Shown here: in pieces, positions 1,253-41,597 of the stretch
Numbering within the stretch: position 1 is the first letter of the stretch
Layout of the letters: each line of letters begins with the position of its first letter
Assembly: GCA_965248005.1 (NCBI GenBank)
Contig: CBDFIE010000003.1
Coordinates: forward strand, 1,494,498 to 1,558,497
DNA length: 64,000 nucleotides
Reading direction: 5' to 3'
Origin: Dehalococcoidia bacterium
GTDB taxonomy: Bacteria > Chloroflexota > Dehalococcoidia > Lucifugimonadales > UBA1123
Notes under the pieces: model-generated
Seen by the model: the letters and a program-made list of their open reading frames with translations, nothing else
Database searches by the model: none
What the model was told of the DNA's origin: nothing
Translations under genes and position numbers: made by a program

Positions 1253-2938
1253 ATGACAGCCGAAGCCAAGACGAACCTTAAACGGAAAAGCGGCGTCCAG
1301 ACCGACGGGCCGGAACGGGCGGGCGCCCGAGCAATGCTGCGCGCCACCGGCCTTACGGACGACGACATGGACAAGCCCTTCGTGGCGGTGGCCAATCTGG
1401 CTTCCGACGTCACGCCGTGCAACGTCCACCTCAACCGCCTGGCGCTGCGCGTCAAGGACGGCCTGCGTGACGCCGAGAGCGTGCCATTCATGTTCGGTAC
1501 CATCACCATCAGCGACGGTATTTCGATGGGCACCGAGGGGATGAAGGCGTCCCTGGTCAGCCGCGAGGTCATAGCCGACTCCATAGAGACCGTGGTCTTC
1601 GGCGAGAGCATGGATGGCCTGGTGGTAGTGGCCGCCTGCGACAAGAACATGCCCGGCGCGATGATGGCCATGGCCCGACTTAACATCCCATCGCTGTTCG
1701 TCTACGGCGGCGCGATAATGGCGGGAAACTGGCAGGGGAAGGACATCAATATCCAGGACATGTATGAGGCCATCGGCGCTTTCTCCCAGGGCAAGATCAG
1801 CCTCGATGAGCTGACGGGCATGGAGCGCGTGGCGTGCCCGGGCGAGGGCGCGTGCGCGGGAATGTTCACCGCCAACACCATGGCGTCGGCCATCGAGGCC
1901 ATGGGGATGTCCGTCCCCGGCGCGGCATCGGTCCCGGCCATCGACCCCCGTAACGAGGAGATCGCCTTCGACGCGGGTAAGCTGCTCTACACCCTACTGG
2001 AGCGGGACATCAAGCCCCGCGACATCATGACCCACGACGCGTTCGAGAACGCCATACGGGTGGTGCTGGCCATGGGCGGCTCCACCAACTCGGTCCTCCA
2101 CCTGGTTGCGATGGCCCACGAGGCCGAGGTGGACATAACCATCGACGATTTCGACCGGCTGAGCCGCACCACGCCGTATATCACGGACCTGCGACCGGCG
2201 GGGCGGTACGTTATGCCCGACATGGACCGCTCAGGCGGGCTACCCGTGGTGATGAACGAGCTGCTCGGCGCCGGGCTGCTCCACGGCGATGCCCTGACGA
2301 TTACCGGCAAGACGGTCGCCGAGAACCTGGCGGGAGTCGACAAAAAGCCCGACGGTAAAGTCATCTATCCGGTATCGAGTCCCCGGAGCCCAACGGGCGG
2401 CCTGGCGATACTCAAGGGCAACCTTGCCCCCGACGGGGCGGTTATGAAGGTGTCGGGCAGTAAACGGCTGCGGCACGAGGGGCCGGCCCGCGTGTACGAT
2501 GGCGAGCGCGCCGCCTTTGCGGCGGTGACCCGAGGCGACCTCAACCCTGGCGACGTTCTGGTGCTTCGATACGAAGGACCGAAAGGCGGGCCGGGGATGC
2601 AGGAGATGCTGGCCGTAACAGGCGCCATCATGGGCACGGACCTGGGGGACAACGTGCTGCTGCTGACCGACGGACGCTTCTCGGGCGCCACCCATGGGCC
2701 GATGATAGGCCACGTCGCGCCGGAGGCCGCGGTGGGGGGGGCCATCGCCCTGGTCCGGGAAGGTGACATCATCACGCTGGATGCCGAGGCGCGTCAGCTA
2801 AACGTGAATTTGTCCGTCCAGGAGCTGGACCGGCGTCGCCGGGAGTGGAAGCCGCCCGTCTCCCAATACACCCGTGGCGTCATGGCCAAGTACGCCAAGC
2901 TGGTCTCGTCGGCATCGCAGGGCGCGGTTACGACCTAG
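1253..2938 (+). CDS. ilvD: dihydroxy-acid dehydratase
   Basis: The 561-aa product has the typical IlvD/Edd N-terminus ([23 protein letters not shown]) and CDKNMPG and GGSTN motifs. GGAGG lies 6 nt upstream of the ATG. Confidence 0.97.
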
Positions 2939-2940
2939 GC

Positions 2941-3400
2941 TACCACTGTCATTCTGAGGTCCGACTTGTCGGGATGAAGAAACTGGTGGCGAGGGGCCGC
3001 CCCACTCCTCCAGATTGCTTCGTCGGTTACCGCCTCCTCGCAACGACGAATCATGAGCGCATTTCAGAGACGCCCCGCCAGGCAGCAGCGCGGCTTTGGA
3101 TCACGGCCATGACTCTGAATCCCGACCCAGGCCACCATTGTCATTCTGAGGTCCGACTTGTCGGGATGAAGAAACTGGTGGCGACGGGCCGCCCCACTCC
3201 TCCAGATTGCTTCGTCCGTTACCGCCTCCTCGCAACGACGAATCATGAGCGTATTTCAGAGACGCCCCGCCAGGCAGCAGCGCGACTTTGGATCACGGCC
3301 ATGACTCTGAATCCGCCAGAGGCCACCACCGTCATTGCGAGTCCCGATGAATCGGGACGACGAAGCAATCTGGCGGGGTGGAGACGGAAATCCCGCAGCA
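2941..3400. repeat. tandem array of a ~192-nt unit: two near-identical copies plus a diverged partial third
   Basis: Units start at gtcattctgag (2948 and 3140) and gtcattgcgag (3331). Each carries internal hairpins. The spurious ORF 2845..3453 shows the duplicated peptide HCHSEVRLVGMKKLVA. Confidence 0.85.
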
Positions 3401-3809: not shown

Positions 3810-4066
3810 CCCCCTCTCTCCGGGTAGGTCCGTGCCCATCAGACCTCACCCGACCTGCTGTTGGTCCGCTCAGCGCACCGAATCTATCGGGCGCGGCTCA
3901 CTCGACGTATTGATTGTGATTCCCGTCACTATCGTAGCAAACATTTGTCGCAGCGTGTTACAGGTGTGTTGCAATCATGTAACCTCCTTGAGCAGCGTCC
4001 GGAGTGGCTCACTCGCCCTGCGCCGAGCCAATGGCCGCTAATTCCGATTTGTGATACATTTCATTT

Positions 4067-4774
4067 ATGTCTCAGGCAGTCGTAAATCCGGTGGCCACGG
4101 TGAGCTCCGAGAGCCGTTGGGTTCGAGACGTCCTTCTGGTCTCGGGCGGGGTCCTAATGGCGGTCACCCTATACCTGGTATTTCTGTGGGTCCCGACCGA
4201 GCGGACCCTCGGCGCCTCCTACCGGATCTTCTATTTCCACGTGCCGCTGGGCTGGATAGGCATGGTCTCCATCATCGTGGTCGCCGTTGCCAGCGTGCTG
4301 CACCTTCTCACCGGCAAAGAAAAGTGGGACAGCCTCGCCTACGCGACTGCCGAGCTGGGGGTCGTTTTCGCGACCCTGATTATCGTGACCGGTTCCGTCT
4401 GGGCCAAGCCAGTTTGGGGCGTATGGTGGACCTGGGATGCCAAGCTTACGACGACGCTGGTGTTGTGGTTTATCTACGTGGGTTACCTGATGGTCAGGGC
4501 GTATGGACCGGTCGGCGGCCAGGGAAGGCGGTTCGCGTCGGTCATCGCGCTGATCGGCGCTATCGACGCGCCCATCATCTTCAAGGCCACGGACTGGTGG
4601 CGCGGCACCCATCCCGAGCGCAATGTGCCCTTCGACCTGGACGAGCGCATGGTGCTGACCTTCTTCGTGTCTCTGGGGGCGTTTACAGTGCTGTACGCCT
4701 ACCTGCTCCTGGAGCGATATGCGCTTAAGAGAGCGGAATCCGACCTCGATCGGCTCTACCAGGGTTTTTCGTAA
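4067..4774 (+). CDS. ccmC: heme exporter / cytochrome c maturation protein CcmC
   Basis: Polytopic membrane protein carrying the Trp-rich WAKPVWGVWWTWDAKL signature (WGxxWxWD) and conserved His residues. Confidence 0.9.
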   Translation: MSQAVVNPVATVSSESRWVRDVLLVSGGVLMAVTLYLVFLWVPTERTLGASYRIFYFHVPLGWIGMVSIIVVAVASVLHLLTGKEKWDSLAYATAELGVVFATLIIVTGSVWAKPVWGVWWTWDAKLTTTLVLWFIYVGYLMVRAYGPVGGQGRRFASVIALIGAIDAPIIFKATDWWRGTHPERNVPFDLDERMVLTFFVSLGAFTVLYAYLLLERYALKRAESDLDRLYQGFS

Positions 4775-5222: not shown

Positions 5223-5696
5223 ATGGCACCAAATATGTCCGAAACAGCCTCGCCTCTGCAAGAGATGTCCGCCCCCGCCGACGGCGCGTTGAACGCCAAC
5301 CGCGGTAAGCTCCTCATCGCCCTGGTGGTGTTGGTCGGCGCTCTGGGCTACTTCGGCTTCGTGGCCTTCGAGGGCGCGACCGTCTACTACTACACGGTGG
5401 GGGAGATGAACGAGATTGGTCCGTCGCCCGAGGGCAAAGCGGTCCGTGTCAGCGGTAAGCTGGTGCCCGAGACCTTTCACCGCGCCGACGGTTCCACCAT
5501 CGCCGAGTTCGCGCTGACGGACGGTTCAGCGCGGATGTCCGCGGTGCACGAGGGGGTGCTTCCGGACCTGTTCTTTGACGACCACTCGGAGATTATTCTT
5601 GAAGGGACCTACGGTCCGGACGGCGTATTCGCGAGCGAGAACGTCATCGTCAAGTGCCCCTCGAAGTACGTCGCCATCGAAGACGAGCAGAGCTGA
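5223..5696 (+). CDS. ccmE: cytochrome c maturation heme chaperone CcmE, CxxxY variant
   Basis: N-terminal TM anchor plus an OB-fold core (VRVSGKLVPETF, EGVLPDLF, EIILEG). The C-terminal motif is VKCPSKY where canonical CcmE has HxxxY. Confidence 0.85.
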   Translation: MAPNMSETASPLQEMSAPADGALNANRGKLLIALVVLVGALGYFGFVAFEGATVYYYTVGEMNEIGPSPEGKAVRVSGKLVPETFHRADGSTIAEFALTDGSARMSAVHEGVLPDLFFDDHSEIILEGTYGPDGVFASENVIVKCPSKYVAIEDEQS

Positions 5697-5787: not shown

Positions 5788-6207
5788 ATGCGGCAACACC
5801 GTGACGGCATCGCACGAATCCTGGCATACGCCGGACTGCTTCTGATCGTGGCGCTAGTAGCGGTAGCGTGCGACGAACCGAGCGCCGGGCCCGCGCCGGG
5901 CCCTGACGACGCGCAGACAGCCGCGCAGCTCCCGACGGCCACACCCACCGTCACGGCCACTCCGACGCCGCAGCCGACGCCTACACCGACCCCTACTGCC
6001 ACGGCCACACCCACGCCGACGCCCACGGTGACGCCCACTCCCACGGCGACCGCCCCTGCTACCGGCGCCGTCGCGCCAGGCCCAGCCCCGGCGCGACCAT
6101 CCTCGAAAACGCGGCCCGGGCCATGGCCGCCGTCCAGTCGTTCCACTTCGACATCGATGCGAAACTGTCCATCTCCAGCGAGGGCGCGTCACTGGACGTT
6201 CCCATAG
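5788..6207 (+). CDS. lipoprotein signal peptide plus Thr/Pro-rich linker; probably the 5' part of the next gene, separated from it by a frameshift
   Basis: [12 protein letters not shown] lipobox followed by [18 protein letters not shown]. The last ~40 codons ([21 protein letters not shown]...) look out of frame. Confidence 0.5.
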
Positions 6208-23787: not shown

Positions 23788-25650
23788 CTATCTCAGCACG
23801 CGGGCGTCGCCGACCCGGCGGGTGACGCGCTGGTGGTCCAGATAGTCCATCAGGGCCAGGGAGTACTTGCGGCTGGTGCCGAACAGGTCCCTGACGTCGG
23901 CCACTGTGATCTCTCCGTGCTCCCTGATGTGCGACGAGATACTATCGACCATCTGCCGATAGGCGTCGGCGGAGAAGACCACGGTCTCGCTAACTTTGAC
24001 GACCTGCCCCTCTTCGTCCAGCAGGCTCAGCACCTCGGCGTCGATGGGCCCGTCAGTAGGGGGCGAGAACGGGTCGGAGTCCAGAAGTTTCAGGTACGCG
24101 TCGACGCTCTTCTTCTGGTCGTCGGACAGGGCCGGCCTGTGGGAGGGGAGCCGCACCACGCTACCGTGTTCCTCGGAGACGCCGCTATCGCCCAGCATAG
24201 GCAAGGCGTCGTTGAAGACCTGGGGAGGCAGGCTTAACCGAGAACGCAGCTCCTCTTTGGGCGCGCCCTGACGGAGCGGGAACTGGCGGTGGTACGAGGA
24301 GAGGGCCTTGCGAGTCTTCTCCGACAGCGCTGCCCATCCTCCGGCCGTGTAGAAGCGGGCGCCGGGGCCGATCTTACGACCGCCCAGCGCAAACACCAGC
24401 CGCTCGGTCGCCATGGCGGAAAGCTCCGCCGCCGCCACGCTGGGGCTGAGGTTGGCCCGGTTGACCACGTCGCTGAACTCGCCGGGCTCGGCCACCTCGA
24501 TGGTCTTGACCAGCACCTCGCGGTCCGACCCCCTCTCCATGACCTCCAGCCGCTCGATGGTGGCGGGGTGGTTGCGACGCGGGCGGCGGGCGTGGGTGTC
24601 GACGATGTTGCCGCCGCCCAGGGTGGTCAAGTTGGACCGGATGACGAAGTAGTCGCCCTTGGCGATGGCCAGCGGCGACTCCAGCTTTAGCTGCGCCCAG
24701 GTAGTCTCCCCCGGCTCGGCCCGGTCGCCTTCCAACAGCCGTAACCTGGCGATGACCTCGCTGGAGCCGGTGTGAACGGTCACGAACATGTTGTGCCGCA
24801 GTGGGTGTGGAGCGTCCGGGATGACCCGAAGGTGGACGTCAAAGGCCGCGGTAGGCCTCAGCCAACCGGGGGTCGTCAGCACCTCGCCCCGGGATATCTC
24901 GTCGTGGGGCACGCCGATCAGATTGGCGGCCACGCGCGTGCCCGGCTCGGCACGGTCCTCCTTCTGTCGGTGGGTCTGCAGACCGCGTATACGAGTGCGG
25001 CGGCCGGAGACGGCCAGCTCCACCTCCTGACCGACCTCCAGCGTGCCGTCGATCAGGGTGCCCGTAACGACTGTGCCGAAACCGGTGATGGTGAAGGACC
25101 GGTCGATCGGTAGACGGGGCCGGCCCAGGTCCTTCTTCGGAGAGGCCTCGCCCAGCAGGTCCTCGATGGCGCCCACTAGCTCGGGCAGCCCGTCGCCGGT
25201 GGCCCCGGAGACCGGAACGATCGTGGAGCCTTCGAGCGCGGTGCCGTCCAGCGCCTCTACGATGTCCGACTCCACCAGCCCGAGCCACTCGTCTTCCACC
25301 AGGTCCCTCTTCGTGAGGGCCACCACGCCGCGGTCGATCTGGAGGAGGTCGAGGATGGCCAGGTGCTCGCGTGTCTGGGGCATCACGGACTCATCGGCGG
25401 CGACCACCAGCATCGCCAGGTCGATGCCGCCGACGCCGGCCAGCATGTTGTTGACGAAACGCTCATGGCCGGGTACATCGACGATGCTCACCTCGTTGCC
25501 ACCCGGCAGCTTGAGCCAGGCGAACCCCAGGTCGATGGTCATTCCCCGTTCCTTCTCCTCTCGGAGCCGGTCAGGGTCGATACCCGTCAGCGCCTGGACC
25601 AGGGTGGACTTGCCGTGGTCAACGTGGCCAGCTGTGCCGACTACGAACAT
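23788..25650 (-). CDS. selB: selenocysteine-specific translation elongation factor
   Basis: GTPase motifs GHVDHGKST, DVPGH and TKRD, EF-Tu-like domains II/III, and a long C-terminal winged-helix extension ending ...YSLALMDYLDHQRVTRRVGD. Confidence 0.93.
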   Translation of the reverse strand: MFVVGTAGHVDHGKSTLVQALTGIDPDRLREEKERGMTIDLGFAWLKLPGGNEVSIVDVPGHERFVNNMLAGVGGIDLAMLVVAADESVMPQTREHLAILDLLQIDRGVVALTKRDLVEDEWLGLVESDIVEALDGTALEGSTIVPVSGATGDGLPELVGAIEDLLGEASPKKDLGRPRLPIDRSFTITGFGTVVTGTLIDGTLEVGQEVELAVSGRRTRIRGLQTHRQKEDRAEPGTRVAANLIGVPHDEISRGEVLTTPGWLRPTAAFDVHLRVIPDAPHPLRHNMFVTVHTGSSEVIARLRLLEGDRAEPGETTWAQLKLESPLAIAKGDYFVIRSNLTTLGGGNIVDTHARRPRRNHPATIERLEVMERGSDREVLVKTIEVAEPGEFSDVVNRANLSPSVAAAELSAMATERLVFALGGRKIGPGARFYTAGGWAALSEKTRKALSSYHRQFPLRQGAPKEELRSRLSLPPQVFNDALPMLGDSGVSEEHGSVVRLPSHRPALSDDQKKSVDAYLKLLDSDPFSPPTDGPIDAEVLSLLDEEGQVVKVSETVVFSADAYRQMVDSISSHIREHGEITVADVRDLFGTSRKYSLALMDYLDHQRVTRRVGDARVLR

Positions 25651-27215: not shown

Positions 27216-28031
27216 TCAGCGCCCGGTGTATACCGGCTTTCGCTTTTCGGCGAACGCGCGCCTGCCCTCCTGGGCGTCGTCGCTGTCGCGGGCAACCCGC
27301 TGGGCTTCGCGCATCCGCTCGATGTCCCTGGCCGTTAACGCTGCCCCTTCCCGACTGCTCCGAACCAGCGTGTCGATGACCCGCTTGTGGCCGCTCACGG
27401 ACAGCGGGGCGTTGTCGACGAACTCCCGCGCCAGGGCGAAGACCTCGGACTCCAGGTCCTCGGGGCTGAGCACCATGTTCACCAGCCCCATGTCCAGCGC
27501 CCGCTGAGGGCTGACCATCCAGCCCGCGCAGAAAAGTTCTTTGGTGAACGCCGGACCCACCAGGTCTATGAACACCTGGATCCGCTCGTAGTCGTAGATG
27601 ATGCCCAGACGCGACGGCGGGATGCCAAGCTGAGACCGGTCGGTGCAGATGCGGATGTCGCACTCGGTGGCCAGCGCCAGGCCGCCCCCAACGCAGTACC
27701 CGTCGATCATCGCGATCACGGGGAACGGGGCGTCGGATATCGCGTCGACGGTCTTGCGGTGGGGCCACTGTAGCCGAGCGTCTTTGTCTGTCCTGGGCTG
27801 AGGGCCCGGGTCGCCGAGCGTCCGGCGGAGGTCGTCGCCGGCCGAGAACGCCATGTCGCCCTGGCCCTTGATTACGAGGCAACGCACTTCGCCAGCCTCC
27901 GCCATGCGGTCTATGTTGTCCACCATCCCAGCGTGGATCTCGGGGTTCAGCGCGTTGCGCTTTTCGGGACGGTTGATCGTGAAAGTCGCGATCCCGTCTC
28001 TCTGCTCGACGATCAGCGCGTCGTAGCTCAT
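27216..28031 (-). CDS. enoyl-CoA hydratase/isomerase (crotonase) family protein
   Basis: FTINRPEKRNAL and AMIDGYCVGGGLALA oxyanion-hole motifs. Confidence 0.9.
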   Translation of the reverse strand: MSYDALIVEQRDGIATFTINRPEKRNALNPEIHAGMVDNIDRMAEAGEVRCLVIKGQGDMAFSAGDDLRRTLGDPGPQPRTDKDARLQWPHRKTVDAISDAPFPVIAMIDGYCVGGGLALATECDIRICTDRSQLGIPPSRLGIIYDYERIQVFIDLVGPAFTKELFCAGWMVSPQRALDMGLVNMVLSPEDLESEVFALAREFVDNAPLSVSGHKRVIDTLVRSSREGAALTARDIERMREAQRVARDSDDAQEGRRAFAEKRKPVYTGR

Positions 28032-28300
28032 ATCACACTCCGTTGATTGTATAGGCGGAACCCGGGCGCCAGCGGCGGTCGAAGCGTGGGGAGTATAGCA
28101 TGGCGGAGTTTCGTCGGGCCCCTCAAATGACGTATATTGATCCTACCGTGAACTTGGCAAGAGACCACGGCATGTCAGGCGCGATCCCCTCTGAGGGAAT
28201 GCGCGGACCTCCAGCGGGGTGGTCCGGTGCGAATCCCGACGATACGCAAATACGTAGAAGATCAAGCGACCAATTCTAAGGCCTGGAGCGGGTAACCGAG

Positions 28301-29059
28301 TTGTCGCCAAGACACAGGATAGCTATGCTCGTGGTAGTGATTGTGGTCGCTGCCCTGGGATGCGGTACGTCGGAACCGGCGGCAGAACCGTCTGCGCCGT
28401 CCGTCCCTGAACAGGCTCCCTCGGCAGAGGTGACTGCTCGATCGGCAGCTACCGCTCAGCCCAGAACGCCGGCGCCGCCGATGGCGGCGACCGCCCCCCC
28501 CAGTTCGCCGACCGCTCAGCCGACATTACCGGCCGCCCAGGTAGAAACGCCCGTCCAGCCGACTCCAGCCGCGCCCAGGGCGGACGCTACCGACCAGCCA
28601 ACTCCGACGGCTTTTCAGGTGGGGCACTCGGTGGGCGACCTTGCCCCGGAGTTCGAGCTGCGACTGGCCGACGGCACATCCGTGACGTCGGCGAGCCTGC
28701 GCGAAGGGTCCCAGCCCACGTTCTTGTTCTTCTTGACAACGTGGTGACGGACCTGCCGCGCCGAGTTACGGCGCATGAAAGATGTTTGGCCTGACTATGC
28801 CGATAGCGTGGGCTTCTACGCCGTGGGCATCGACCCAACCGAGGGAATCAGTGAGTTAGAAGCGTACCGCGAAGGGCAGGGACACCCGTGGCCCGTTGCC
28901 GTTCCCGGAGCGGGCATGCTGGCGGACTTCAGGGTCACTTATCAATCGACCAAGGTCGCCCTCGACGCCGCCGGGGTCATCACGTATCGCGACGGTTTCG
29001 GGCGAGGTGGCGAGGAGGCGTGGCGCGAGGTTTTCGAACAGCTGGCAGCAGCCGAATAG
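28301..29059 (+). CDS. thioredoxin-fold thiol:disulfide oxidoreductase lipoprotein (TlpA/ResA-like), predicted selenoprotein with in-frame UGA at 28745-28747
   Basis: Track ORFs 28301..28747 and 28775..29059 share one frame. Read-through gives FLFFLTTW-U-RTCRAELRRMKDVW, that is WCxxC with the first Cys replaced by TGA, and the rest of the TlpA-like fold follows. The N-terminus has an AALGC lipobox and a Pro/Ala linker. Confidence 0.7.
28758..28774 (+). promoter_or_regulatory. candidate bacterial SECIS hairpin
   Basis: GCGCCG-AGUUA-CGGCGC is a perfect 6-bp stem with a GU-containing loop, starting 11 nt after the UGA. Confidence 0.45.
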
Positions 29060-29162
29060 GCGTTTGCGGGACCACGTTCCACGACGCTCGGAGCAGACCG
29101 CCGTTCATCGCGGTCGATGCCCCACCGGCCGGCACTGTACGGACAAGTACGGACGCGGGCGG

Positions 29163-29534
29163 CTACTGTCCCCTTAGCAGAAACTCGTTGCCGTCCGTGT
29201 CGCGGAAGGTCGCAAAGTTACCCCAGGGCATCTTCTGTAGCTCTTGCGTGAACTCCACGCCCCGGCCTTTCATGACATCGAAGGTGGCCTGGATATCGCT
29301 GCACTCGAACACGACCGATGGCTTACGCTCGGCCCAGTCCGACATCAGCGACTTCGGATACAGGACCAGACGTGAGGCCGCCCCTTCCGGCGCCAGCTCC
29401 AGCCAGGAGCCGGCGCTCCCCATCGACTCACGCCGCCTCAGCTCGAAGCCGACTCGGTCCCGCCAGAACTCCAGTGCTTTGTCCTGGTCATCCACGTAAA
29501 CGGCGACAGTGGCGATCTGCTGAATCATTCGCAT
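29163..29534 (-). CDS. VOC (glyoxalase/bleomycin-resistance) family protein
   Basis: VAVYVDDQDKALEFWRDRVGFE ... FRDTDGNEFLL, typical of paired beta-alpha-beta-beta-beta modules. Confidence 0.85.
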   Translation of the reverse strand: MRMIQQIATVAVYVDDQDKALEFWRDRVGFELRRRESMGSAGSWLELAPEGAASRLVLYPKSLMSDWAERKPSVVFECSDIQATFDVMKGRGVEFTQELQKMPWGNFATFRDTDGNEFLLRGQ

Positions 29535-29616
29535 TACTCCCTTGTGGTCTGCGCACTACACTCCGTCCCTGGGAGGCAGCAATGGCTCCGGCACAGTGCC
29601 GGCGCGCGAATGTCGC

Positions 29617-30030
29617 CTACCGCCGAGCGTCCAGATAGGCCTGGAGTATGACCGCGGCCGCCGAGGCGTCGACGCGCCCACGGTCGCGAGAGGACTGGGG
29701 ACTCGCGTCTTGAAGCAGACGCTGGGCCTGGACGGTAGAGTAGCGCTCGTCGACCGTGTCGACGGGCAGCACTGCCCGCGCCGAGAGCTCGGCGACGAAA
29801 GCGCGCACGGTCCTGGCCTGCTGGCCCTCCGAACCGGAGAGGGACAGAGGCAGCCCCACGATAATCGACTCGACGCCCTGCTCCCCGGCGATGCGCAGTA
29901 TCTCGTCTATGGCCGAAGGCTGCGCCGTAGCTCGGTCGACGGCGGTGATGGGCGTCGCCAGCATACCGGTTGGGTCGCTAAGCGCCACGCCGATGCGCCG
30001 GTCGCCCACGTCCAGGGCCATGACCCTCAC
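29617..30030 (-). CDS. ruvX: putative pre-16S rRNA nuclease / Holliday junction resolvase-like YqgF
   Basis: ALDVGDRRIGVALSD, IIVGLP and DERYST motifs. Its GTG start overlaps the alaS stop (GTGA). Confidence 0.9.
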   Translation of the reverse strand: MRVMALDVGDRRIGVALSDPTGMLATPITAVDRATAQPSAIDEILRIAGEQGVESIIVGLPLSLSGSEGQQARTVRAFVAELSARAVLPVDTVDERYSTVQAQRLLQDASPQSSRDRGRVDASAAAVILQAYLDARR

Positions 30031-34139: not shown

Positions 34140-35108
34140 CTACTGGAGTACCTCGTTGATCGCCTCCTCCAGCTCGGCGGCGCCCACAAAGCCCTCGTAC
34201 TTGGCCCGCACCACGCCCTGGCCGTCCATGACGAAGGTCCACGGCTCGGTCGTGAGGTTCCATTCGAACATGGTCGGCGAGACTCTGGCCCGTTCGATGC
34301 CTCCGTCCCGTATGTCCGGCGGGTTGTCGTACACCTCGACGTGGATGAAGTTCACGCGACTACGATATGTTGCCTTCAGCTCCTTCAGCACGTCCACCTG
34401 AGGGCCACACGTCGCGCTTGTGCAATATGCCGGGGTCGCGAAGGTAACGATTAGCGGTGCAGCCGCTTGCAGCGCTTCGGCTATCGTCATCGCGTATAGC
34501 TCGGGGTCGGGCGCCGTGTCCGTCGTCAGGTCCTCGAGGTCCGCTACATCCCTGGCAGTCTTGTTCGCGCTGGGCGGCGCGGGCGAGCCGATCGGCGGCG
34601 TCCGGCTCTGCTGGCCGACCTGTGCGATGGTGGTGGCGCGGACGGCCGTCCCATCCGGCTGCATCAAAAACATAGCGAGTCCCCATTCGCCCGGCTGGTC
34701 GAACGTGAGCCGAACCACATAGACACCGCCAAAGCCGCCGGGCCACTCTCGGAACTCCGCCTCAACAGTTTGCTGCGGCGCCGCAGGCTCCGCGGGGTCG
34801 ACCAGGAGGAAGGTCTGCACCTGGACGGGGGCGCCCTTGATAGCCCCCCGTGCCGGGTCTATCAGTCCGAAGGCGACTCGATTGCCGCCCACCGCCAGGT
34901 CCGTCGAGGCCAGGGCCACGGTGAGCTCCGAGCCCTCCTGCGCGGACGGTCGCGGTGCTGCTGTTGGCTGTGCCGCCTCCGCCGGCGCAGGTCTCGGGGC
35001 GGGCTCGGTCGAGCCGCCGCCGCAGGCCGACGCGACCACTGACAGGACGGTGAGCGCCGCCACTAACGTCGCCCACCGCGATACGGAGACCGGTCTCAGT
35101 ACGCTCAT
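34140..35108 (-). CDS. thioredoxin/SCO-like fold lipoprotein with CxxxC motif
   Basis: Start taken at MSVLRPVSVSRWATLVAALTVLSVVASAC (lipobox). The C-terminal domain has IVTFATPAYCTSATCGP. The track ORF start at 35360 would overlap the neighbouring gene. Confidence 0.7.
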   Translation of the reverse strand: MSVLRPVSVSRWATLVAALTVLSVVASACGGGSTEPAPRPAPAEAAQPTAAPRPSAQEGSELTVALASTDLAVGGNRVAFGLIDPARGAIKGAPVQVQTFLLVDPAEPAAPQQTVEAEFREWPGGFGGVYVVRLTFDQPGEWGLAMFLMQPDGTAVRATTIAQVGQQSRTPPIGSPAPPSANKTARDVADLEDLTTDTAPDPELYAMTIAEALQAAAPLIVTFATPAYCTSATCGPQVDVLKELKATYRSRVNFIHVEVYDNPPDIRDGGIERARVSPTMFEWNLTTEPWTFVMDGQGVVRAKYEGFVGAAELEEAINEVLQ

Positions 35109-35286
35109 CCTCCCCAATCTGCATCGGTCTAGCCGGCGAAACACGGCGGCCGGGCCGCGCAATTCGACCGCTCGGTTGCCCGCCGACATCCATGATAGCC
35201 GATGCCCGGGCAGGACAAGGAGCACGGTCCGGTGGCGACGTGCCCACATCTGCTTGCCGCGGCACACACTCACAACCACATCCGGG

Positions 35287-35862
35287 CTATTCGAAGCGGA
35301 CGACCGTGCCTGACGCAATGCCCAGCCGCAGGGCCAGGCCGCCGTTAATCTCCAATGCAAGCAGGGCCTCCACCGGCGGCTGGTAGAGGGTCAAGTCACC
35401 GTCTGGAACGCCAGGCTCGGGCACCATCGTCTGGATATCGACGACGGCGCCGTCTCGGGCGATGTATACCAGGTCTAGAGCGAAGCCGACGTCCTTCATC
35501 CAGAAGCGGTGCAGCCCCTCCTGTGGGAATATGAACAGCATGCCGCTGTCGTCGGCGATAGCGTCCCTGCCACCGAGGCCCCTACCTCGCGACGTAGCGT
35601 CGCGGGCCACCTCCAGGGTGAACGTCCGCCCGTTTACAATGGCCCGAGTTGGCTCGCTGTCGCCCGTGAACTGTTCCGCGAAATCTCGCGGCGCCTGTGT
35701 CCCAGCTCCGCCGGAGAGGGCTTCCCTCTCTGGCGCAGGCTGACGTCCCGGGTCGCTGCTGGCGTACCACAGGAGCGCTACCGCGACGGCCAATAGGGGC
35801 ACGCCAATCAGCACTGCCGGTCTCCTGCCCCGTCTATCCGAAATGATGGTCAGTCCTCTCAC
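35287..35862 (-). CDS. DUF192 domain protein with an N-terminal membrane anchor
   Basis: GMLFIFPQEGLHRFWMKDVGFALDLVYIARDGAVVDI and ALLALEINGG match DUF192. I prefer the GTG start at 35862, just before the TM segment; the longest ORF would reach 35967. Confidence 0.7.
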   Translation of the reverse strand: MRGLTIISDRRGRRPAVLIGVPLLAVAVALLWYASSDPGRQPAPEREALSGGAGTQAPRDFAEQFTGDSEPTRAIVNGRTFTLEVARDATSRGRGLGGRDAIADDSGMLFIFPQEGLHRFWMKDVGFALDLVYIARDGAVVDIQTMVPEPGVPDGDLTLYQPPVEALLALEINGGLALRLGIASGTVVRFE

Positions 35863-40232: not shown

Positions 40233-41597
40233 ATGACCACCATCGCCGACCAGCCAAGGGACCTCTGGAATGCCGTTCTCGGCGAGCTGCAGCTCCACGT
40301 CACCAGGCCCAGTTTCGAGACCTGGCTCAGGCGCACGGAAGGCGTGGATTTCCGGGACGGCGAGTTCACCGTCAGCACTCCCAATGCCTTCGTCGCTGAG
40401 ATGCTCGAGCAGCGCATGTACTCCCTCATCTCCCAGACCGTCGAGCGCGTGGTCAAGGCCCCGGTTGAGGTGCTGTTCCGCGTGGCGCTCTCGCCGGACG
40501 ACGGGGATTCGGACGATTCATCGGGCCAGGCGCTCAGCCCCGAGCCGGCGTTCGAGGCCGACATTCCCAGAGTCCAGCAGTCGCCGCTCAACCCGCGGTA
40601 CACATTCGAAAGATTTGTGGTGGGTAGCTCGAACGAGTTGGCCCACGCTGCCGCTGGGGCCGTCGCCGACAGGCCGGGCGAAGTCTACAACCCGCTGGTC
40701 ATGTACTCCGACGTCGGCCTCGGCAAGACCCACCTGATGCACGCCATCGGCCACCGCATATTGTCCAAAGGCATGTCGCTCATCTCGGCCACGACAGAAG
40801 AGTTCACCAACGAGTACATCAAAGCAATCCGCGAAGGAGGCACCGAGGGCTTCCGCGACCGCTACCGCAACACCGACGTGCTCCTGCTAGACGACATACA
40901 GTTCTTGATCGGTAAAGAGCAGACCCAGGAGGGGTTCTTTCACACCTTCAACGCGCTCCATATGACAAACCGGCAGATCGTCATTACCAGCGACCGGCCG
41001 GTCACGGCGCTGACGCTGCTCGAGGACCGCATGCAGTCGCGGCTTTCCGGCGGCCTGGTGGTCGACATTCAGCCGCCGGGCATCGAGACGCGGCTCGCCA
41101 TCCTCAAGGCCAAGGCCGAGCAGGTGGGACAGGTCATCGCTGATACCGTGCTGGAGTTCCTCGCCGAGAGAGTCCAGCAGAACATTCGCCTGCTGGAAGG
41201 TAGCCTCAACCGGGTGATCGCCTTTGCGCAGATGACGAACAGCCCCATCGACTTGTCTCTAGTCAACCGGGCCATCGCCGACATCGTTTGCACCGTCTCA
41301 GGCCGTCAATTGCCACCCGATCTGGTGCTCGAGACGGTTTCAGCTTATTTCGGAGTGGATGTCGGGGCGTTGAAAGGCCGCAGGCGCGACAAGCACACCG
41401 CCCTGGCCCGACACGTCGCCATGTTCCTGCTCCGGGAAGAGGCCCACCTCCGCCTAACGACGATCGGCCGCATGCTGGGTGGCAAGGACCACACAACAGT
41501 CGCCCACGGCTGTGACCGCATCTCCGCCCAGGGCCAGGTCGACCACGGTCTGCGGAGGGACCTGAACAACATCCGCGAGACCCTGGCCCGCAGCTAG
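40233..41597 (+). CDS. dnaA: chromosomal replication initiator protein DnaA
   Basis: LWNAVLGELQ N-terminus, NPRYTFERFVVGSSN, Walker A GLGKTHL, LLLDDIQFL, and the C-terminal DNA-binding motif GGKDHTTVAH. Confidence 0.97.
   Translation: MTTIADQPRDLWNAVLGELQLHVTRPSFETWLRRTEGVDFRDGEFTVSTPNAFVAEMLEQRMYSLISQTVERVVKAPVEVLFRVALSPDDGDSDDSSGQALSPEPAFEADIPRVQQSPLNPRYTFERFVVGSSNELAHAAAGAVADRPGEVYNPLVMYSDVGLGKTHLMHAIGHRILSKGMSLISATTEEFTNEYIKAIREGGTEGFRDRYRNTDVLLLDDIQFLIGKEQTQEGFFHTFNALHMTNRQIVITSDRPVTALTLLEDRMQSRLSGGLVVDIQPPGIETRLAILKAKAEQVGQVIADTVLEFLAERVQQNIRLLEGSLNRVIAFAQMTNSPIDLSLVNRAIADIVCTVSGRQLPPDLVLETVSAYFGVDVGALKGRRRDKHTALARHVAMFLLREEAHLRLTTIGRMLGGKDHTTVAHGCDRISAQGQVDHGLRRDLNNIRETLARS

Follow-up and report, generated by a model that had tools for sequence, protein, structure and literature searches.

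A 64,000-nucleotide (nt) stretch of contig CBDFIE010000003.1 from a Dehalococcoidia bacterium (assembly GCA_965248005.1), referred to here as the window, contains at positions 28301-29059 a reading frame that is interrupted by one in-frame TGA. Comparison with related loci indicates that this is very likely a single gene for a genuine UGA-decoded selenoprotein of 252 residues, with selenocysteine (Sec, U) predicted at the first position of a UxxC redox motif. The same TGA recurs in most members of a family of related genes, the coding sequence is under equal constraint on both sides of it, and it is followed by a covarying hairpin with the properties of a bacterial selenocysteine insertion sequence (SECIS). 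From its sequence, the product is predicted to be a lipid-anchored, extracytoplasmic thiol:disulfide oxidoreductase of the TlpA/ResA-like kind; its topology, client and electron donor are likewise predictions.

Translated from TTG 28301, the frame reads MSPRHRIAMLVVVIVVAALGCGTSEP..., continues through a stretch of about 80 residues rich in Pro, Ala and Thr, and then gives FQVGHSVGDLAPEF...QPTFLFFLTTW, where it meets the TGA at 28745-47. The residues directly after this codon are RTCRAELRRMKDV, and the same frame continues as RTCRAELRRMKDVWPDYADSV...QSTKVALDAAGVITYRDGFG...AAAE before closing at TAG 29057-59. An initial annotation of the window had joined the open reading frames (ORFs) 28301-28747 and 28775-29059 into one gene. 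They do lie in one frame, with the TGA as the sole interruption and nine sense codons between it and ATG 28775. The components of the predicted gene, all on the forward strand, are as follows.

28285..28288, +, putative Shine-Dalgarno-like GGAG, 12 nt 5' of the TTG start
28301..29059, +, predicted complete selenoprotein gene, 252 codons plus stop, with Sec as codon 149, start TTG 28301 (alternative ATG 28325) and stop TAG 29057-59
28301..28363, +, predicted lipoprotein signal peptide MSPRHRIAMLVVVIVVAALG/C, with the lipobox Cys21 at 28361-63 (PROSITE PS51257-style rule)
28364..28612, +, Pro/Ala/Thr-rich low-complexity linker, residues 22-104, joining the lipid anchor to the catalytic domain (from the translation; homologues have similar linkers)
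28613..29056, +, TlpA/ResA-like thioredoxin-fold domain, residues 105-252 (Pfam, PDB profile search and an AlphaFold2 model of a Cys homologue)
28745..28747, +, predicted Sec-UGA codon, U149, first position of the U-R-T-C redox motif (aligned to Cys in the homologues P0002 and P0007)
28754..28756, +, resolving Cys152 (TGC) of UxxC, invariant in alignments A1 and A2
28758..28774, +, predicted SECIS hairpin, with a 6-bp stem (28758-63 GCGCCG with 28769-74 CGGCGC) and the loop AGUUA (28764-68), inside the R-A-E-L-R-R codons

The start codon is not certain. The alternative ATG 28325 has AGGA 5 nt upstream; TTG 28301 is favoured because the peptide ELSPRxxIA, which lies 5' of ATG 28325, is conserved in two relatives (P0037 and P0038). 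A promoter and terminator scan of 27900-29700 found nothing.

Conservation of the UGA codon

A protein search with the catalytic domain, in which U was replaced by C, gave 38 matches. These include two full-length Cys homologues, P0002 (55% identical) and P0007, as well as two N-terminal fragments (P0037 and P0038) that stop exactly at ...FFFTTW, and about thirty C-terminal fragments of 94-102 amino acids (aa). Database proteins that stop at ...TTW or begin just after it imply that gene callers split the gene. Such fragmentation had been anticipated in the initial annotation, and one of the C-terminal fragments, P0001, is the 94-aa downstream ORF of the window gene itself. The active site of the window protein reads W-U-R-T-C, and both full-length homologues, each with TWCPVC, align their Cys with the U of TW-U-RTC. 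The TGA thus falls on the first Cys of a WCxxC motif, as had been proposed.

A family set of 116 active sites was assembled from the DNA of encoding contigs and 76 genome loci (80+ loci overall). Each of the 76 belongs to a metagenome-assembled genome (MAG) of Dehalococcoidia, SAR202 or Chloroflexota. The first active-site codon is TGA in 102 copies, TGC in nine and TGT in five, and in none is it TAA or TAG, giving a ratio of Sec to Cys forms of about 7:1 in this clade. Two of the loci (L004 and L005) are syntenic with the window, with the order enoyl-CoA hydratase, selenoprotein redoxin gene, ruvX and alaS. One family copy, at position 3928 of locus L046, has an extra in-frame stop four codons 5' of the Sec codon (FLYF*ATT*PTC), which could reflect either decay of a paralogue or a mistake in assembly.

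Selective constraint was compared across the codon using 72 moderately diverged homologue pairs. The ratio of nonsynonymous to synonymous substitution rates (dN/dS) is 0.087 over the 100 codons after the UGA and 0.086 over the 45 codons before it, and this near equality implies that both halves are translated and constrained alike. The downstream part is therefore conserved in frame, as required of one continuous protein, and the full-length Cys homologues are single chains. Elsewhere in the window, TGA serves as the terminator of five of the 19 Pfam-supported genes, none of which has an internal stop.

The hairpin downstream of the UGA codon

The initial annotation had also described a perfect hairpin after the UGA and proposed it as a bacterial SECIS (bSECIS). 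The G+C-rich 6-bp stem does begin at the 11th nt past the UGA, so that the spacer measures 10 nt, and the distance from the UGA to the start of the loop is 16 nt. Published bSECIS criteria comprise a loop of 3-9 nt, a stem of 4-16 bp and a G in the first two loop positions (PMC13188914), together with a UGA-to-loop distance of 16-37 nt and a minimum free energy (MFE) of -7.5 kcal/mol or lower (PMC13188914). With a 5-nt loop, a 6-bp stem, G at loop position 2 followed by U, a distance of 16 nt and an energy of -10.3 kcal/mol, the window element falls within every one of these limits.

Evidence that this helix is maintained by selection comes from alignment A2, which covers positions -9 to +51 in 92 distinct TGA-site sequences. 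RNAalifold recovers the same helix from these sequences without guidance. Standard pairs occupy 98.2% of the cells, compared with 78.9 +/- 1.2% in shuffled alignments, and none of 500 shuffles reached as high a value. Compensatory changes are found in five of the six stem pairs (CG/GC, CG/UA, GC/UA, CG/UA and CG/UA), and double-change cells number 101, against 34.8 in the shuffles. As a control, the 3' arm was slid by 1-3 nt, which lowered pairing to 26-65%. The loops are AGUUG (70 sequences), AGUUA (15) and CGUUG (7).

The hairpin is also specific to the TGA state. Copies with TGA have a mean of 5.9 of 6 pairs and -9.0 kcal/mol, whereas in the 13 distinct Cys copies the means are 1.9 of 6 pairs and +5.2 kcal/mol. 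One Cys form departs from this, the copy found in loci L082 and L083 (that is, P0002), which is the closest Cys copy to the window clade and retains five of the six pairs; its hairpin looks like a decaying SECIS. A strict pattern was also applied to both strands, consisting of TGA, 12-25 nt, and an NGUUR loop closed by a stem of 5 bp or more, in a frame that stays open for 50 codons to either side. Its sole match in the 64-kb window is this TGA, and over all loci it matches 116 sites, each of them in this family.

Since the hairpin lies within the coding sequence, its structure is written in codons. The loop and the closing pair are encoded by Glu-Leu codons (G/AG-UUR) and the stem by the flanking codon pairs. 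The residue pairs on either side of Glu-Leu co-vary (R-A..R-R, R-S..R-S, T-A..R-R, T-A..Q-R and A-A..R-Q), and they are forced to do so because the stem pairing is written in their codons. Cys forms are freed from this pairing constraint, with sequences such as CRREMNQLK and CRKDLSELK.

Decoding of such an element depends on SelB, and the initial annotation had placed the gene for this factor near the redoxin gene. It lies 2.65 kb away, on the opposite strand.

23788..25650, -, selB, Sec-specific elongation factor of 620 aa with C-terminal SECIS-binding winged helices (Pfam GTP_EFTU, Beta-barrel_SelB, SelB-wing_2 and SelB-wing_3)

The domain make-up of this SelB is complete, comprising the GTPase, domain 2, the SelB beta-barrel and winged helices 2 and 3, and the protein passes the NCBIfam equivalog model TIGR00475 with 339.5 bits against a cut-off of 242.

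A gene of another selenoprotein family, the UGSC family (...AIGS-U-GSCSACSVHDGIHAEKAG), stands beside redoxin genes on the opposite strand in about 17 loci, and none occurs near the window copy. It is found at 5960 (-) in L001, 3694 (-) in L016, 3791 (-) in L017, 3690 (-) in L039, 4950 (-) in L042 and 4947 (-) in L055, and in about ten more loci. This gene (AIGS-U-GSCSAC), which is unrelated to the redoxin, has its own hairpin (CGUGC-AGUGU-GCACG), with the loop starting 18 nt past its UGA. The similarity of the two hairpins fits one SelB recognition mode common to the UGSC and redoxin families.

Fold, anchoring and alternative readings

The initial annotation had recognised a complete thioredoxin-fold redoxin of the TlpA/ResA-like kind in the read-through product, and domain and structure searches agree with this. 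With Cys substituted for the stop, the Pfam AhpC-TSA and Redoxin families cover residues 111-201, across U149; the AhpC-TSA match (E = 1.3e-11, 45 bits against a cut-off of 26) includes the motif U-R-T-C. A family profile searched against the PDB ranked 2ls5 (1e-19), 2m72 and ResA 4nmu (3e-14) highest, followed by further ResA entries, CcmG/DsbE (about 1e-10) and StoA. In the AlphaFold2 model of P0002, the domain has a predicted local distance difference test (pLDDT) score above 90, and the Sec-equivalent Cys85 comes directly after strand 76-81, where helix 86-102 begins; the region that matches the window linker has low pLDDT. Foldseek with this model placed ResA first (template modelling (TM) score 0.82-0.89 normalised to the target, root-mean-square deviation 1.6-2.1 Å), then Etrx1/2, SdbA and CcmG. 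ResA, CcmG and Etrx proteins rank at the top in both searches. A Glu three residues past the second Cys aligns with the equivalent conserved acidic residue (Glu) of ResA.

Likeness of fold does not extend to orthology. No NCBIfam model was matched at its cut-off, with 31.7 against 170 bits for ResA (NF002854), 22.7 against 123 for DsbE (TIGR00385) and 23.3 against 359 for PRK15412, and because of these scores the window protein is taken not to be a ResA or DsbE orthologue. The peroxiredoxin motif PxxxTxxC(U) is absent too: the family has F-[AT]-[TS]-x-U-x-x-C, which lacks both the Pro at -7 and the Thr at -3.

The N-terminal lipobox pointed out in the initial annotation satisfies the PS51257-style rule, which places the protein outside the cytoplasm in silico. 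The same rule holds for 73 of 118 family copies, and among the remainder most either carry a signal-anchor helix or represent the second domain in a fusion protein. The window encodes a second putative lipoprotein (...VVASACGGGS) at 34140-35360 (-), with a YtkA-like domain, a weak Thioredoxin_2 match and C-T-S-A-T-C instead of CxxC.

A scheme for synthesis and catalysis can be proposed. SelB carrying Sec-tRNA(Sec) would bind the 17-nt hairpin and deliver Sec at codon 149, in competition with release factor 2. The protein would then be exported and lipidated at Cys21, so that the Pro/Ala/Thr tether would hold the domain outside the membrane. Positioned at the N-terminal end of helix alpha1, Sec149 may attack an oxidised client (a disulfide, a sulfenate or possibly a peroxide), and Cys152 would resolve the intermediate as a selenenylsulfide. 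A membrane electron carrier of the CcdA/DsbD type might re-reduce the Sec149/Cys152 pair. As for the client, there is about an even chance that the protein is a general extracytoplasmic disulfide reductase or Msr-type (methionine sulfoxide) reductase, similar to Etrx. The other half is divided among the two functions weighed further below and clients of some other kind.

Several results weigh against a selenoprotein oxidoreductase of this kind. Neither selA nor selD was found among the window ORFs scanned, and ARAGORN reported no tRNA of any type, including tRNA-Sec, in the 64-kb window. When 28740-28800 is folded as a single sequence, the MFE selects another structure and the z-score is not significant (z = -1.16); the MFE fold of the 39 nt after the UGA does contain the hairpin. 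Support for the hairpin is accordingly comparative, as the single-sequence fold alone is not significant. Rfam had no match to the element, either in the whole window at gathering thresholds or in 28650-28900 at E-values up to 10. The stem overlaps conserved codons, and part of the sequence conservation is therefore owed to the protein; the covariation and the contrast with the Cys forms argue that the RNA constraint is real. On the protein side, the modelled structure is that of the Cys homologue P0002, which is 55% identical, and not of the window protein. Where the thioredoxin fold usually has its cis-Pro, the family has Ser, with Q-S-T-K aligned over L-P-T in ResA 4nmu, and T113 and K114 of QSTK are nearly invariant in the family. 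Owing to the loss of cis-Pro, the chemistry may differ from that of ResA. Lastly, clustering of flanking ORFs over the 80+ loci gave no recurrent neighbour that would suggest a client or electron donor. Neighbours are patchy (a HAD-like hydrolase in about 22 cases, an SDR in about 22 and the UGSC gene in 17), and the clustering is noisy because of spurious high-GC ORFs.

Other accounts of the interrupted frame have to be set against these data. If the TGA were a nonsense mutation in a former Cys-type redoxin, or a sequencing error, the downstream ORF should be decaying. Gene callers do split the gene (P0001), and the extra stop in L046 indicates that decay happens occasionally, but 102 copies, drawn from about 70 genomes, share this TGA, no copy has TAA or TAG in its place, the dN/dS downstream equals that upstream, and the covarying hairpin is specific to the TGA state; a pseudogene or error is thus scarcely credible. 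Hardly any weight can be given, either, to two separate products, a 148-aa lipoprotein stub ending at Trp and a 94-aa protein from ATG 28775. That ATG is present and the 94-aa ORF is in databases, yet Met at 28775 is not conserved (it is Leu in most relatives, as in RSLK and RRLK), a ribosome-binding signal is not evident before it, and such a split would cut one thioredoxin fold between beta1 and alpha1, a fold that full-length Cys homologues form as single chains. It is also very improbable that decoding of the UGA involves no selenium, with Trp, Cys or Gly inserted, for example, by a near-cognate tRNA or under a reassigned code and the hairpin acting as a generic stimulator of read-through. 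There is precedent in other systems, where structures downstream of a stop codon are known to stimulate read-through. Nevertheless, TGA is a normal terminator in the window (5 of 19 genes), a complete selB with SECIS-binding wing domains is nearby, the hairpin fits the SelB-type consensus in its small loop containing G-U and its distance of 16 nt from the UGA, and the codon occupies the position of a redox-active Cys, where exchange of Sec and Cys is the rule.

If the selenoprotein reading is accepted, functions other than that of a general reductase can be weighed. One is an extracytoplasmic peroxidase or sulfenate reductase in which Sec would be peroxidatic and Cys152 resolving. AhpC-TSA ranks first among the Pfam matches, the alignments appear to place the invariant Lys of QSTK at the position of the conserved Arg of peroxiredoxins, Sec is typical of peroxide-reducing enzymes, and the absent cis-Pro is the residue that positions protein substrates in thioredoxins. 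On the other hand, the PxxxTxxC signature is missing, with [AT][TS]xUxxC in its place, and the structural neighbours are reductases (ResA, Etrx and SdbA) rather than peroxiredoxins, which makes this function unlikely. Less likely still is a dedicated apocytochrome c reductase, equivalent to CcmG or ResA, for a variant cytochrome c maturation (Ccm) system. The initial annotation had raised this link, and the genes on which it drew do exist in the window.

4067-4774, +, CcmC-like gene (PF01578)
5223-5696, +, CcmE gene (PF03100, 76.9 bits), with CPSKY in place of the usual His motif

The CPSKY motif marks this CcmE, by its sequence, as a Cys-type variant of System I; ccmF and ccmG were not seen among the scanned ORFs adjoining ccmC and ccmE. 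The presence of these genes at 4.07-5.70 kb, the ranking of ResA and CcmG as best structural and profile matches, and the conserved Glu after CxxC, which is important in ResA, all speak for such a role. Service of this system by the redoxin is nevertheless unsupported: a distance of 23 kb separates the redoxin gene from the ccm genes, none of ccm, res and ccdA is a recurrent neighbour of the family across the 80+ loci, scores are far under the ResA and DsbE cut-offs, cis-Pro is missing, and two to four tandem paralogues and two-domain fusions would be unexpected for a Ccm factor with a single client.

Family features and comparison with known systems

Members of the family occur in tandem arrays of up to four copies per locus (L041 and L047). 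In L001 (3485-5050), L056 and L058, one polypeptide contains two redoxin domains joined by a Pro/Thr-rich linker, each with its own TGA and SECIS, so that two Sec residues are predicted per polypeptide. L022, L024 and L034 are probably two-domain fusions likewise. In a rough neighbour-joining tree, which has no support values, the Cys forms comprise one nested clade plus L082, at least two changes between U and C are needed, and Sec is placed at the midpoint root; these inferences are tentative. The L082 and L083 copy (4001-4567; P0002) retains a hairpin remnant, GCUCUG-AGUUG-CGGCGC, and several transposase genes and a DUF4395 gene adjoin it. These features suggest that a conversion from Sec to Cys took place recently, possibly following transfer.

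These features could mark a distinct sub-family of Dehalococcoidia and SAR202 that is Sec-dominant (about 7:1, with Sec at the root) and tethered, has lost cis-Pro and gained Lys, forms tandem arrays and two-Sec fusions, and often stands beside a UGSC gene. This view is tentative and has perhaps one chance in five. If it were true, the family might represent an undescribed selenium-based extracellular redox function in bacteria, for instance the detoxification of peroxide or sulfenate at the cell surface in oxic seawater. The 17-nt SECIS on Glu-Leu codons would show how a Cys enzyme can acquire Sec decoding by few substitutions, and how an RNA element can force residues of helix alpha1 to co-vary.

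Two further observations concern the window at large. A 192-bp unit is repeated in 2.1 tandem copies (93% identical) at 2931-3336, between ilvD and a CBS-domain gene. The dnaA gene lies at 40233-41597 (+) and the cumulative GC skew has its minimum at about 42 kb, and for these two reasons the chromosomal replication origin is probably inside the window, at about 40-42 kb.

The prediction of a selenoprotein appears to be correct, and the kind of protein was already known, since UxxC selenoproteins of the Prx-like, redoxin and TlpA families are established and Dehalococcoidia are rich in selenoproteins. Listed families include a 'Prx-like thiol:disulfide oxidoreductase, PF00578, UxxC/UxxU', a 'Redoxin family protein, PF08534, UxxC' and a 'UGC-containing TlpA family' (PMC13188914). 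In the Global Ocean Sampling (GOS) survey, 'Prx-like 1' accounted for 225 Sec sequences and UGSC was a major family (PMC2398784), and the Prx-like family had far more Cys than Sec forms (PMC2398784). Entries for Dehalococcoidia MAGs in BSepDB give 46-49 selenoprotein genes (PMC13326102). What seems new is modest and in silico: the dominance of Sec, the tethered architecture with its long linkers, the arrangement in tandem arrays and as fusions with two Sec residues, the loss of cis-Pro and a SECIS on Glu-Leu codons. None of these features was found described in the bacterial selenoprotein literature cited here.

The immediate value of the finding lies in annotation. The window gene and dozens of relatives are present in public protein sets only as unnamed 94-102-aa or truncated fragments, and selenoproteome counts and functional inference for SAR202 and Dehalococcoidia, a major ocean lineage, therefore depend on recognising such genes. 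The family also offers an unusually clean natural experiment in SECIS evolution, with about 100 Sec copies showing compensatory variation, a nested hairpin-free Cys clade and the apparently decaying hairpin of L082 and L083. It enlarges the small group of selenoproteins whose predicted site of action lies beyond the cytoplasmic membrane, and leaves the understanding of Sec decoding and of TlpA-like enzymes unchanged.

Several known systems resemble parts of this one. The apical stem-loop of E. coli fdhF, 17 nt in length, is a minimal SelB-binding element. With the bacterial SECIS consensus the window element shares a small apical loop with G-U at positions 2-3, a loop 16 nt past the UGA, a hairpin within the coding sequence and an energy below -7.5 kcal/mol; it differs in lying at the extreme short end of the spacing range and in having a perfect 6-bp stem with neither a bulge nor a lower stem. 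ResA of Bacillus and CcmG/DsbE have the same membrane-anchored extracytoplasmic topology, W-C-x-x-C at the start of alpha1 and an acidic residue three past the second Cys, whereas the window protein has a predicted Sec for Cys, Ser for cis-Pro, sub-cut-off scores, no ccm or res linkage and multiple copies. In the pneumococcus, an extracellular methionine sulfoxide reductase receives its electrons from CcdA through Etrx1 and Etrx2. These two Streptococcus pneumoniae proteins (4hqs, 4hqz and 2yp6) are likewise lipoproteins with TlpA-like extracellular domains that occur as paralogues, with TM scores of 0.76-0.81; they are, however, Cys enzymes, and the window family has no msrAB or ccdA neighbour in the 80+ loci.

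Closest in kind are the Prx-like and redoxin selenoproteins, which share with the window protein the thioredoxin fold, a match to PF00578 or PF08534, Sec as the first residue of UxxC, the existence of Cys homologues and abundance in marine metagenomes. By its PF00578 match and its UxxC motif the window protein is a putative member of the Prx-like family, whose published description allows one to two Sec residues. From that family as published, the clade of the window protein differs in that Sec forms outnumber Cys forms, and in its lipid or transmembrane anchors, long Pro/Thr-rich linkers, tandem arrays and two-Sec fusions.

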